A stretch of DNA of 64,000 nt, taken from Escherichia phage SP27. Every line of letters starts with the position of its first letter. Position 1 is the first letter of the stretch. Below, piece by piece: positions 1,968 through 47,249 of this stretch. The DNA lies in sequence record LC494302.1; one strand, 5' to 3'. Both the position numbers and the translations under genes were made by a program. A model generated the notes under the pieces. It was given only the letters and a program-made list of their open reading frames with translations. It had not been told where the DNA came from and ran no database searches.

Positions 1968-2106
1968 TGGTGTATACTAATATTTTTACTGGTATTATGC
2001 GTAAATTTATTAATGGTACTGGATACGTATCTAATGACAACGGTAGTACATGGGTAAAAAATAATACGTCTGAATCTTTAGTAAAAAGTCTTCCGTATTA
2101 TAAAGC

Positions 2107-2135
2107 TTGACACATGAAAATGGAGTATGTATAAT
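2107..2135 (+). promoter_or_regulatory. sigma70-like early promoter
   Basis: TTGACA, 17-bp spacer, TGtATAAT extended -10. Confidence 0.5.
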
Positions 2136-2167
2136 ACTCCTATATTAATTAAACGAGGATATACGAA

Positions 2168-2740
2168 ATGGCTGGTGTTGATAAAATTTGTGAATTCAGT
2201 TCAGATTATGAAGGTTACGAAATGTACAAGTCCAAGCGTAATCACATCCAAGTACTGTCAAAGTACCGTAAAGAATTCAGAGGCCACAAAGCAACATTGT
2301 ATGTTTTTGAGAATGGATATTCTGAAGTTTTCACAAGTGGTGGGTACAGTACAGCTAACATGGCACATATCAACCCAAACCCAACTGAAGATGATTGGAA
2401 TAGTGGTAACGCTTTTCGTATTTCAATTTTGAATAAAATGAATCGTTACGACCGTTATTGTACATTCTTTGAAAATATTTCAGAATACAAGCAAGCATTA
2501 AAGAAATATAATCAACGCTTACTAATGAATTATGATTACATTCTTCATGTGCCAACTGTTCCAGGTCAGGTTAATGGTCTGTATACGAATAGTACACATG
2601 ATTTAACTGCGGTGAAGCGTCGCCTCAAACGTATGTTGGGTTGTCGTAATTTAACAATCAAGGTTGTGCGTAATGAATCAATGTATAACTTTTTAGATGT
2701 ACTACACTACACATTGAAGGATAATAATGGAAACGATTAA
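2168..2740 (+). CDS. hypothetical protein
   Basis: 190 aa ORF with GGATATACG RBS downstream of promoter. Confidence 0.5.
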   Translation: MAGVDKICEFSSDYEGYEMYKSKRNHIQVLSKYRKEFRGHKATLYVFENGYSEVFTSGGYSTANMAHINPNPTEDDWNSGNAFRISILNKMNRYDRYCTFFENISEYKQALKKYNQRLLMNYDYILHVPTVPGQVNGLYTNSTHDLTAVKRRLKRMLGCRNLTIKVVRNESMYNFLDVLHYTLKDNNGND

Positions 2741-8177: not shown

Positions 8178-8513
<336 letters not shown>

Positions 8514-8514
8514 A

Positions 8515-8697
8515 ATGACACACGAAGAATGGATGTCCAAACAGCATAAAGAACATGACTGCTTTGGGAATGGCATTCGTCAGGTACATTATGATATATT
8601 AAGAGATGAAAATCTTTTCAGGTCATATGTTTTGGATACCAGAAAACCCTGGTTTATATGCGAACTGGCATTTAGAAAGTCAAATAATCAAAACTAA
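8515..8697 (+). CDS. MTHEEWM-family small protein
   Basis: Starts MTHEEWM, paralog. Confidence 0.45.
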   Translation: MTHEEWMSKQHKEHDCFGNGIRQVHYDILRDENLFRSYVLDTRKPWFICELAFRKSNNQN

Positions 8698-8713
8698 ACA
8701 AGGAATACAAAAA

Positions 8714-8932
8714 ATGGAAACAACTTTATTTGAAGTTATTCAATCATTAAAACCTGAAGATGAGGTTCAAGTACTACTACATGGTTATCGTGTAAAAGGT
8801 ACTGTGGTTTTAGTCAATGATACAACATTGGTTATTACAGAAACAAACCCATATGATAGTAATCAACTTGCCAATATCCATATCGATATCACTGGAATTA
8901 TTGGTGTCGGTGTATCTAAAACACTTGCATAA
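8714..8932 (+). CDS. hypothetical protein
   Basis: Start at METTLFE after AAGGAA RBS; 72 aa. Confidence 0.4.
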   Translation: METTLFEVIQSLKPEDEVQVLLHGYRVKGTVVLVNDTTLVITETNPYDSNQLANIHIDITGIIGVGVSKTLA

Positions 8933-8985
8933 ATCATTAATTCATTATATAATGATTATCACTGGTTCTAGATGAGGATAATATT

Positions 8986-9258
8986 ATGCATTTTGAAAAA
9001 TTCAACGTAAATCGTAACACACGCATTGAAGTTCTTTATGAAACTCAAGACACCATTAGTATTCGTACAAGTAGTGGGGATGTATATCATGACTGTACGA
9101 TTGGCTGGGAACAGGGAAGAACGCGTAGTGCAGTATTTGATAATTATCGCTTTTATCAAGGAGACACTACGATTTGGCCTGAATACGTAGAAGATATTGC
9201 GTTTGAAGATGAACATAAAGATGAATTTATCAAATTTAATCCTCAAACTGAATCATAA
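8986..9258 (+). CDS. hypothetical protein
   Basis: 90 aa, GAGGATAA RBS. Confidence 0.4.
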   Translation: MHFEKFNVNRNTRIEVLYETQDTISIRTSSGDVYHDCTIGWEQGRTRSAVFDNYRFYQGDTTIWPEYVEDIAFEDEHKDEFIKFNPQTES

Positions 9259-9275
9259 ATAATGGGACATCACAT

Positions 9276-9391
<116 letters not shown>

Positions 9392-9395
9392 AAAT

Positions 9396-9497
<102 letters not shown>

Positions 9498-9502
9498 AAA
9501 CC

Positions 9503-9663
9503 ATGACGCATGAAGAATGGATGAATGACATTAATTTTAGATATGCAGGTTTCGGTAACTGGAGAAAGTATCATTGGGAAATCATGTCAGACCCAGCAGA
9601 ATACGATAAACTTATAAACCATGAAGCGTATCCGTGGTTCTTTATTGAAATAATGGTACGAAC

Positions 9664-9667
<4 letters not shown>
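9503..9667 (+). CDS. MTHEEWM-family small protein
   Basis: 54 aa starting MTHEEWM. Confidence 0.4.
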
Positions 9668-9829
<162 letters not shown>

Positions 9830-9837
9830 AAAAAAAG

Positions 9838-10247
<410 letters not shown>

Positions 10248-10251
<4 letters not shown>

Positions 10252-10281
10252 CTAAATAATTCAGTACTGAGGATATTAATA
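10248..10281 (+). promoter_or_regulatory. promoter-like element with CAGTACTG
   Basis: TTGACTaaataatTCAGTACTGagg; weaker -10. Confidence 0.35.
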
Positions 10282-10308
10282 TGTTTAAAGATGAACGTCC
10301 AGATTTGT

Positions 10309-10356
<48 letters not shown>

Positions 10357-10379
10357 ATCAGACGTATATGGTGTAAGTT

Positions 10380-10700
10380 ACGTCGATGCAATCCAGAACA
10401 AGATCTCTGGTACTCTAGGAAGTGGTGAATGTTAACCTAGACGGGTTTGATAATTGGACGATAGGCAATTATTACTTGACTAGCAGGTTGAAACTAGAGG
10501 TGACAGTCCTTCACCAAACTGGAAAACCGGATGGACTTTTATTTAAAAGGGTAAGGCGTGGAAATATGTTTACAGAAGTTGCTTTTAGTAGCCTGTACGC
10601 CCCACGTCAAGGTAGCCGAAAGGCAAGTTAAAACGGATGGTTATAAAGCTGAATTAACAGCGGCGTTTAAAAGCGTCACCATCCATTTTTTTAATTAAAG
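10380..10700 (+). ncRNA. candidate structured RNA (unclassified)
   Basis: GC-richer ~320 bp behind a promoter, no convincing ORF, GAAA-looped hairpins (GTAGCCGAAAGGCAAGT) and GGATGG...CCATCC closing stem. Confidence 0.3.
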
Positions 10701-10708
10701 TTGGTGAT

Positions 10709-11473
<765 letters not shown>

Positions 11474-11491
11474 TTCACATGATATAGGGTG

Positions 11492-12161
<670 letters not shown>

Positions 12162-12180
12162 AGAGGTACTTCGAGTATGC

Positions 12181-12304
<124 letters not shown>

Positions 12305-12307
12305 ATA

Positions 12308-12394
<87 letters not shown>

Positions 12395-12449
12395 GACTGC
12401 CAAACAGCTTGAAGTACTTTGTAGTGCTGCACCTATGCCGACACTTGGC

Positions 12450-12550
<101 letters not shown>

Positions 12551-12562
12551 TATCTTACTTCT

Positions 12563-12652
<90 letters not shown>

Positions 12653-46567: not shown

Positions 46568-46914
46568 TGTTTGAAGCTTATCTTGAGTTTTTAAGGAGTA
46601 GTCCAGTTGCACATTCACTTGCAGGGATTATTCTAACAACTTATGTATCATTTTGGGTAGTTATGTTTCTAGGATGGTATTTTAAACGACAATTCTATAA
46701 ACGTAATGGTGAAGATTTTATGAATTCTGTCATTAATCAATCGTTGTTTGCATCAACATTGATTGCATGTATTGTAGCAACACTCACAGGAAAGGTACTA
46801 CCAGCTTTTTCCGCAGTTTACGGCACACTTGGGATGATATGTTTAACTTTTATATTGACCATTAAAATTTGTTGTGTTATGATTGAACTTCGAAATAAGA
46901 TACCGGAGGAATGA
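46567..46914 (+). CDS. small multi-TM protein, array B member 3
   Basis: Hydrophobic, tail ELRNKIPEE. Confidence 0.5.
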   Translation: MFEAYLEFLRSSPVAHSLAGIILTTYVSFWVVMFLGWYFKRQFYKRNGEDFMNSVINQSLFASTLIACIVATLTGKVLPAFSAVYGTLGMICLTFILTIKICCVMIELRNKIPEE

Positions 46915-47249
46915 TGGAGTACTTTATTGATTTACTGCCGTGGTATATGAAAGTTAGTACCATGTACTATATTATTAGTGCTGGATTCTACTTTCTGATG
47001 TGGTTCTTTAAACGACCAATTTCAGTATTCATCGCTGATAACATGTTGCAATTAAAATTACACGCATGGTTTGGTATGGCGATGATTATGCCTATTATTC
47101 ACTACTCAATGATTAGTAGAGGTTTCCGTTCTAATGGTGAACCAATTGTATTAGTATTCTATTGGGGTTCAACTATTGCATATGTAAGTTTGTTGTTGTT
47201 CCCAGTCGTTCATAAGTTACGTGCTAAAGTTCCTGATGCGAGGTACTAA
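46911..47249 (+). CDS. small multi-TM protein, array B member 4
   Basis: Tail KLRAKVPDARY. Confidence 0.5.
   Translation: MMEYFIDLLPWYMKVSTMYYIISAGFYFLMWFFKRPISVFIADNMLQLKLHAWFGMAMIMPIIHYSMISRGFRSNGEPIVLVFYWGSTIAYVSLLLFPVVHKLRAKVPDARY

Follow-up and report, generated by a model that had tools for sequence, protein, structure and literature searches.

A candidate small non-coding RNA cassette with a triple-pseudoknot RNA in the tRNA gene cluster of Escherichia phage SP27

The tRNA gene clusters of phages have been known for 50 years to harbor stable RNAs that are not tRNAs, RNAC and RNAD of phage T4. HDV-like (hepatitis delta virus-like) theta ribozymes reportedly lie next to phage tRNAs, as described by Kienbeck et al. 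in 2024, and T4-type phages are said to carry mobile cassettes made of a promoter plus a stem-loop, the PeSLs of Arbiol, Comeau and Krisch, 2010. We analyzed a stretch of 64,000 nucleotides (nt) from Escherichia phage SP27 (LC494302.1; hereafter, the window), in which a reading of the letters alone, the original prediction, had placed a structured RNA at 10380-10700, inside a tRNA cluster. Our results indicate that this region is probably a small non-coding RNA cassette with two separable small-RNA genes, here called modules A and B, and not a protein gene. As judged by comparing homologous sequences, module A (188 nt) is well supported as a new class of structured RNA in the known niche of phage tRNA-cluster RNAs, and module B appears to be a separate, simpler hairpin small RNA.

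RNAC (species 1) and RNAD (species 2) of T4 are non-tRNA RNAs of 119-139 nt that are co-transcribed in the tRNA cluster and whose function is unknown (PMC3014915; PMC9697503). Like rnaC and rnaD, module A is encoded amid phage tRNA genes and on the same strand as they are, and its maturation route is likely to be similar. Module A differs from them in being larger, in having three pseudoknots, and in being without the T-arm-like GGUUCGAAUCC of rnaC, and it has spread horizontally across phage families whereas rnaC and rnaD are confined to Tequatrovirus. ROOL and GOLLD, for which no protein partner is known, occur in phages and prophages (PMC12286853). They resemble module A in that they often lie near tRNA islands, contain multiple pseudoknots, and have an unknown function (PMC12286853). 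In contrast, ROOL (about 580 nt) and GOLLD (over 800 nt) are 3-4 times larger than module A, which falls short of the size of over 500 nt that marks these RNAs; they come mostly from Gram-positive hosts, prophages and metagenomes, and they form homo-oligomeric cages. Theta ribozymes are similar to module A in being structured, pseudoknotted, and immediately downstream of the 3' end of a phage tRNA, but they are about 50-60 nt and have the HDV double-pseudoknot topology, whereas module A has another topology and can also have its own promoter. PeSLs resemble the cassette in that a repeated early promoter and a stem-loop terminator found in more than one place delimit it, and in being present, absent or shuffled among close relatives. 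They are described as flanking small protein-coding open reading frames (ORFs) in hyperplastic regions of T4-like phages, whereas the cassette studied here carries RNA and belongs to a RaK2-like jumbo phage. Additionally, the related jumbo phage PA5oct expresses abundant non-coding RNAs (PMC7318152). We found no prior description of module A in the literature, where it could be an unnamed entry in a catalog of ~8,500 phage motifs of up to 151 nt (PMC10690425).

The cassette is in a region with 98-99% identity to Escherichia jumbo phages of the genus Asteriusvirus, e.g., 121Q and PBECO4 (blastn), and is surrounded by a plus-strand cluster of six to seven tRNA genes at 8200-12642 (ARAGORN, Rfam). 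The placement inside a tRNA cluster was therefore correct for the window, and it extends to homologues that fill gaps from one tRNA to the next. The G+C content was 0.37-0.405 over 10300-10700, compared to 0.27-0.31 in the flanking ORFs, in agreement with the description of a GC-richer stretch, and the plus-strand fold energy of the whole stretch was below that of shuffled sequences (z = -2.46). The extent given in the original prediction holds in that the stretch is real, but the RNA starts at 10349 and not at 10380. Likewise, the stretch is structured as proposed, but as two independent modules and not as a single RNA.

The fold of module A (10349-10536, plus strand) was supported by compensatory changes among its homologues. 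Side-by-side reading of divergent versions first suggested seven hairpins and three pseudoknots. From 14 sequences that were easy to align, we derived a covariance model (R1), which then served to align 20 distinct homologues; the model placed the ends of the homologues at 10349 and 10536, and module A scored 235 bits with R1 and 217 bits with R2. We counted covariation over 53 pairs in 10 helices of the 20 sequences (1,034 cells), with column shuffles and with pairing partners slid by 1-3 columns as controls. Standard pairs made up 96.1% of the cells, compared to 79.1% in the column shuffles and no more than 39.5% with slid partners. Compensatory changes were found in 35 of the 53 pairs, and the covariation score was 0.459, in contrast to 0.151 for the shuffles and at most 0.082 for slid partners. 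None of 500 shuffles attained any of these measures, a statistic that overstates independence because the 20 sequences represent only about six independent lineages. Every divergent lineage had covarying pseudoknot strands in an alignment that was itself fitted to the nested helices. The call of a structured RNA thus stands on evidence beyond folding alone, and combining folding with covariation, one of the checks that the original prediction had proposed, supported the fold and added the three pseudoknots.

The helices of module A, all on the plus strand, differed in how much they varied. P1 (10357-10387) is a hairpin formed by AUC-A-GACGUA and UACGUC-GAU, in which 7 of 9 pairs had compensatory changes and the loop contains a conserved GRYG. 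P2 (10393-10410; CCAGA/UCUGG) had compensatory changes in 4 of 5 pairs and varied in length among homologues. All 5 pairs of P3 (10415-10440; CUAGG/CCUAG) had compensatory changes, with 99% of cells paired, and its loop holds GUGG (10422-10425), which is the 3' strand of pseudoknot PK1 and pairs with the 5' strand CCAC at 10352-10355. P4 (10449-10473) had compensatory changes in 7 of 8 pairs, and its loop motif GACGAUA (10457-10463) was identical in all 20 homologues. It is followed by PK2 (10474-10497), a compact H-type pseudoknot with stem S1 (ACUUG/CAGGU), stem S2 (CUAG at 10480-10483 with CUAG at 10494-10497) and an A-rich loop 3. P6 (10499-10515; GGUGA/UCACC) was paired in 100% of cells, and its loop (10506-10509, GUCC) is the 5' strand of PK3; it pairs with GGAC at 10533-10536, which forms the 3' end of module A. 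The weakest helix was P7 (10519-10530), a short hairpin, CUGG-AAAA-CCGG, that was paired in 94.6% of cells and was barely kept in the Aeromonas-phage versions and in that of locus L010.

The pseudoknots and P6 varied in sequence across lineages while retaining pairing. PK1 occurred as CCAC/GUGG, CCUC/GAGG, (A)GCAC/GUGC(U) and CUACA/UGUAG, and PK3 as GUCC/GGAC, ACCC/GGGU, GCCC/GGGC, AUCC/GGAU, UUCC/GGAA and UCCC/GGGA. In PK2, S1 occurred as ACUUG/CAGGU, AGUUG/CAGCU, CACUG/CAGUG and CCUUG/CAGGG, and S2 as CUAG/CUAG, CUGG/CCAG, CAGG/CUUG, CAAG/CUUG and CAAG/UUUG. Variants of P6 were GGUAA/UUACC, GGUUA/UAACC and GGUCU/AGACC. As the covarying strands show, module A folds into a compact body with its 5' end held to the P3 loop, and its 3' end to the P6 loop, by pseudoknots. 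Outside the helices, ~45 nt were invariant, mostly in loops and junctions: CGGG, GACGAUA, UGAC..GCAG, AAA, GAGGU, CCU, ACCA and GAUGG.

Several other features were considered and dropped. Pairing of the 5' CAAUC with GAUUG in the J3/4 segment holds in some sequences only. RNAalifold proposed pairing of CUAG, the 3' strand of S2, with CUGG at 10519-10522; this competes with S2 and fails in the metagenome contig L025. Pairing of GGYG in the P1 loop with the 3' strand of P6 had no covariation, and a T-box-like UGGN in the P1 loop was not conserved. The invariant GAGGU was not kept as a Shine-Dalgarno sequence, there being no start codon downstream.

Module A is found in phages that otherwise share nothing with the window. 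In a blastn search of 50,697 phage records, homology between phage families covered window positions 10348-10534, about the extent of the RNA. Identity was 85-92% in the T4-like Bragavirus phages (Proteus PM2 and Pm5461, Morganella Mm5, Shigella SdyM_006) and in the T5-like Novosibvirus Proteus phage 1. RaK2-like jumbo phages also carry module A, within this range of identity, and weaker matches in Aeromonas Ishigurovirus phages and Klebsiella phage KP13-16 were confirmed by the covariance model. tRNAs were found around module A at every locus (ARAGORN, Rfam). Module A is between tRNA genes in PM2 and SdyM_006 (Bragavirus), Proteus phage 1 (Novosibvirus), KP13-16 and avDM6; only downstream is there a tRNA in Mm5 and EJP2, the upstream neighbor in EJP2 being a promoter, and in Aeromonas phage 65.2 a coding sequence is upstream. 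In six lineages, module A starts 0-5 nt past the encoded CCA of the upstream tRNA, and where a tRNA closely follows, the distance from the end of module A is 6-16 nt (65 nt in KP13-16). A tblastn search of the ORFs flanking the cassette in the window against 13 homologue loci found no flanking protein gene common to the lineages, and Pfam found no domain in the neighboring ORFs. Because no flanking protein gene is shared, we conclude that the RNA itself is the conserved and exchanged unit.

We also searched beyond phage records. There was no blastn match to module A in 5,426 complete Escherichia coli genomes or 72,556 plasmids, and scanning one genome per species for 185,579 prokaryotic species with degenerate patterns gave false positives only. 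Similar scans of IMG/VR and JGI metagenomes yielded contigs of phages or resembling phages and, apart from these, only false positives, which did not stand up to the models. The pattern-scan loci L015, L016, L019, L023, L026, L027 and L032-L034 were false positives in coding sequences, and a 17-bit match of R1 in the window (46985-47151) is inside an ORF (46911-47249) and vanished with R2. As judged from these searches, module A is rare and appears to occur only in virulent phages of Enterobacterales and Aeromonas that are large and rich in tRNAs.

The two modules occur separately among close relatives. Asteriusvirus EJP2 has A without B, and JNE01 has B without A. Sharanji keeps only the first 38 nt of A, and G17 and phAPEC6 have the same truncated match of 39 nt. 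The cassette is therefore accessory, because Asteriusviruses carry A and B, A only, B only, or neither. In the metagenomic contig L021, a tRNA lies between A and B.

Some of these loci had additional features. In Sharanji (locus L035, 2505-2542), a natural deletion joint directly links these 38 nt, which comprise P1 and the PK1 strand, with the ribosome-binding region of an ORF homologous to that at 10709-11098, removing the remainder of A and all of B. The metagenome contig L025 (ERZ808232 NODE-1756; 2105-2607, minus strand) has two diverged copies of module A in the order A, tRNA, A, with many compensatory differences, e.g., ACUAAAAUAA/UUAUUUUAGU in P1 as opposed to GACGUA/UACGUC. In Morganella phage vB_Mm5 (locus L031, 597-915), four tRNAs are annotated opposite to the strand on which Rfam finds them; since Rfam places them on the strand of module A, the strand in GenBank is probably an annotation error. 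Three Aeromonas phages (loci L005, L018 and L029) have, ~80 nt downstream of A and before tRNA-Thr, a conserved noncoding stretch with a promoter-like TTGA...TATAAT. The tRNA arrays of KP13-16 and Aeromonas phage 65 have several other gaps (150-490 nt) that are unannotated and in which further RNAs may be encoded.

Module B (~10548-10633, plus strand) is an RNA of roughly 90 nt with a long irregular hairpin (Ba, Bb and Bc), in which helix Ba pairs 10555-10561 with 10602-10608, followed by a tetraloop hairpin, GCC-GAAA-GGC, at 10615-10624. For module B together with the terminator helices, 95.6% of cells were paired, compared to 89.2% in shuffles, with 9 compensatory pairs among 7 sequences; thus, compensatory substitutions went beyond the controls for both modules. 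By blastn, the interval ~10548-10700 was found only in Asteriusvirus and RaK2-like Alcyoneusvirus, and six Kuravirus podophages had a hairpin with 83% identity to the main one of module B. In JNE01, RaK2, L021 and L022, a promoter of its own precedes module B. The original prediction had noted GAAA-looped hairpins: that at 10615-10624 is a true tetraloop, but the GAAA at 10490-10493 is loop 3 of the H-type pseudoknot, and the loop of CUGG-AAAA-CCGG (10519-10530) is AAAA, not GAAA. In the Kuravirus vB-EcoP-XT32 (locus L007), a noncoding gap of ~650 nt (1226-1876) contains a module-B-like hairpin (1574-1627), a GGACGAUAU motif and an ACAGAUGG motif that recall module A, and an end like a T-arm, and a minus-strand 'hypothetical protein' is annotated across it. 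This gap may hold a larger unrecognized RNA; R1 and R2 had no match in the XT32 region.

A promoter precedes the cassette, as had been proposed. It is a strong, near-consensus phage early-type sigma-70 promoter (10318-10346, plus strand) with TTGACT, a 17-nt spacer containing CAGTACTG, and a TG-extended TATAAT (11 of 12 matches). The motif TTGAC-N7-TTCAGTACTG occurred 9 times in the window, compared to 0.18 expected, and four of the copies were in 9200-11500. Copies of the family TTGAC-N7-TTCAGTACTG-(N)-TATAAT, at 9839, 10248, 10318, 11089, 11985, 27273 and 41941, among others, bracket small cassettes, and they probably act as recombination joints for the gain and loss of cassettes.

The cassette ends in a Y-shaped intrinsic terminator (10635-10692, plus strand), in which the stem GGAUGGU/ACCAUCC encloses two small hairpins, with A-U7 directly after it. 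The GGATGG...CCATCC helix that had been read as closing the whole element does pair (10635-10640 with 10679-10684), but it closes only this terminator. The fold energy was -19.7 kcal/mol (z = -3.85), and the helices had compensatory changes in RaK2 and L021. A stem containing G+C is immediately followed by a U-tract, as in intrinsic terminators, and the two-hairpin branch inside the stem is atypical; on account of this branched loop, the terminator escapes a simple terminator scan. The Y-shaped terminator recurs in RaK2 (locus L004; 4093-4157 and 2443-2470); in RaK2-like phages it is found after a tRNA-Ser and, partially, upstream of module A. Because it recurs at other sites in RaK2, the terminator is a reusable module.

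We suggest the following sequence of events, based on the arrangement of these elements. Host RNA polymerase would start at the promoter at 10318-10346, transcribe A and then B, and stop at 10635-10692. Where module A is in a tRNA array, RNase E, RNase P and 3' trimming would release it, as suggested by its spacing from the CCA and from the tRNAs. PK1 and PK3 would bury both ends, shielding them from exonucleases and from 5'-end-dependent RNase E, and this shielding would make module A a stable RNA, like its companion tRNAs. Module A would then act in trans through its invariant loops and junctions, given that ~45 invariant nt, mostly in loops and junctions, are what marks an active site or a surface for specific binding. 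Since the cassette is optional and is swapped between unrelated virulent phages, it may bind a host or phage macromolecule in a way that helps infection; an optional, horizontally exchanged distribution is typical of host-takeover or counter-defense cargo. Our single most likely guess, a tentative one, is that module A is a decoy or inhibitor of a tRNA- or translation-directed host function; an RNA-only assembly, a ligand sponge, and a base-pairing small RNA are other possibilities. A more speculative and rather unlikely reading is that module A is the first of a new class of phage RNA weapons, a mobile triple-pseudoknot cassette that by itself neutralizes a component of host immunity or translation control. 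It could be a decoy for a tRNA-directed defense nuclease, a sponge for an immune signaling nucleotide, or a new ribozyme. The weapon reading fits because the distribution is optional and exchanged, many loop and junction nt are invariant, and module A is absent from bacterial genomes.

We weighed four other explanations of the stretch. It could be a small protein gene in which RNA structure is incidental. The only sizeable ORF in the stretch (10422-10631, plus strand) has 69 codons open from a GTG start, and among the matches listed, about half of the phage records annotate a 'hypothetical protein' over the stretch. However, the frame has stops or frameshifts in 14 of 20 homologues, including the close relatives RaK2, PM2 and L021, so that no reading frame is conserved. 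Variable sites were not concentrated at third codon positions (13/9/19 by codon position in the module A part and 6/12/6 in the module B part). The ORF had no Pfam match and only a non-significant PHROG match, it crosses two modules that exist apart in relatives, and an AGGA is just 1 nt away from the GTG. The ORF spans both RNAs and is not a gene, and translation is an extremely improbable explanation that is close to refuted already, in line with the earlier view of the ORF as a by-product. It is also very unlikely that module A is a diverged member of a described family, i.e., T4 rnaC/rnaD, ROOL/GOLLD, tmRNA, RNase P RNA, or Y RNA. It does occupy the same niche, phage tRNA regions, as RNAC/RNAD and ROOL/GOLLD (PMC3014915; PMC12286853), and the comparison with T4 small stable RNAs in the original prediction is valid as an analogy. 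Homology to rnaC and rnaD was not found: R1 and R2 had no match in T4 69000-74000 (the rnaC/rnaD region), blastn found no Tequatrovirus, and the T-arm-like sequence of rnaC is absent from module A. In addition, R1 and R2 had no match in the ncRNA001/002 region of PA5oct, ARAGORN found no tRNA or tmRNA on the element, and the Rfam scan that had been suggested found no known family. With Rfam 15, nothing matched the element, either when the window was searched at gathering scores or when the region and six homologue loci were searched at E up to 5-10, and there was no match to the ROOL/GOLLD models (gathering score; E up to 10). Tandem direct repeats of about 34-36 nt, which mark type III antitoxin RNAs (ToxI-like) and phage pseudo-ToxI decoys, were not found in 10200-10800.

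The other two explanations concern what module A does, and they share the observation that it lies close to tRNAs. The cassette could be a cis-acting leader, processing signal or terminator block for the neighboring tRNAs or for the gene at 10709-11098, with no function as a free RNA. Module A abuts tRNAs in most other phages, a generic terminator that also serves at other places makes up the 3' part of module B, and Sharanji has the promoter joined straight to the downstream gene. In contrast, module A of the window and of L021 follows a promoter of its own and is not directly followed by a tRNA, the identity of the flanking tRNAs differs between phages (Gly/Asp in Bragavirus, Leu/Ser in Novosibvirus and KP13-16, Pro/Thr in avDM6), and in the window a terminator stands between the cassette and the downstream gene. 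The ~45 invariant non-helical nt and three pseudoknots far exceed what a processing spacer needs. A cis-acting role is improbable. Many invariant unpaired nt in a complex pseudoknotted fold would also suit a ribozyme of a self-cleaving or processing class that frees itself or an adjacent tRNA, as do HDV-like theta ribozymes, and the 5' end, 0-5 nt past a tRNA CCA in six lineages, has its terminal strand engaged in a pseudoknot, which is also seen in ribozymes whose cleavage site is their own 5' end. We consider this doubtful: no Rfam ribozyme family matched (the HDV-like, hammerhead, twister, hatchet, pistol and glmS models included), the promoter-driven copies have no upstream tRNA to release, and the linker from the CCA to PK1, which is A/U-rich and variable in sequence, resembles ordinary RNase E sites.

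Some observations also weigh against a non-coding RNA cassette with a stable, trans-acting module A. They include the small number of independent lineages and the weakness of P7. The start predicted from the promoter at 10318-10346 is at ~10352-10354, which would clip the 5' strand of PK1 (10352-10355). In SP27, initiation might be atypical, upstream promoters might give the full 5' end, or PK1 might be unformed; in L021 and RaK2 the promoter spacing would take in the complete module A RNA. It is evident from the natural deletion variants that phages can do without the cassette in at least some hosts. The promoter, the terminator and the processing are predicted from motifs and spacing, and a stable RNA acting in trans as a decoy is a proposal.

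A small non-coding RNA cassette at this location would have several implications. Module A would be a second example of a stable RNA in a tRNA cluster, unrelated to RNAC and RNAD, and the question of its role is tractable, since the fold is supported by covariation and the boundaries are clear. Natural variants with A and B, A only, B only, and neither exist among the culturable coliphages of a single genus. There is evidence that module A moved recently between T4-like, T5-like and jumbo phages, a point in favor of a function that is portable and directed at the host. Additionally, the result corrects 'hypothetical protein' annotations over the stretch, and the alignment, which is ready for use in covariance models, can be used to annotate tRNA arrays.

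Other parts of the tRNA cluster in the window had unusual features. The 90-nt spacer between tRNA-Met and tRNA-Asn (11302-11391) has a three-arm, cloverleaf-like fold with a 6-base-pair closing stem (-19.1 kcal/mol, z = -2.89). It was called a tRNA by neither ARAGORN nor Rfam, and 'tRNA-Met' genes of unusual length (87-90 nt) are annotated at the equivalent position in relatives; the spacer may encode a degenerate tRNA or a further small RNA. Directly after tRNA-Ser(UGA), a borderline tRNA at 9396-9474 scored 29.3 bits in Rfam, just above the threshold of 29, and was missed by ARAGORN; its equivalent in Sharanji is annotated as tRNA-Arg(tct), and it may be a decaying or atypical tRNA. The tRNA-Ser at 11128-11219 has an unusual anticodon, ACT, with A at position 34, and is annotated the same in Sharanji. 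Two tandem, overlapping ORFs of 54 codons (9503-9667 and 9664-9828) both start with MTHEEWM and appear to be paralogues, and JNE01 and Sharanji have three such 165-base-pair ORFs in tandem.

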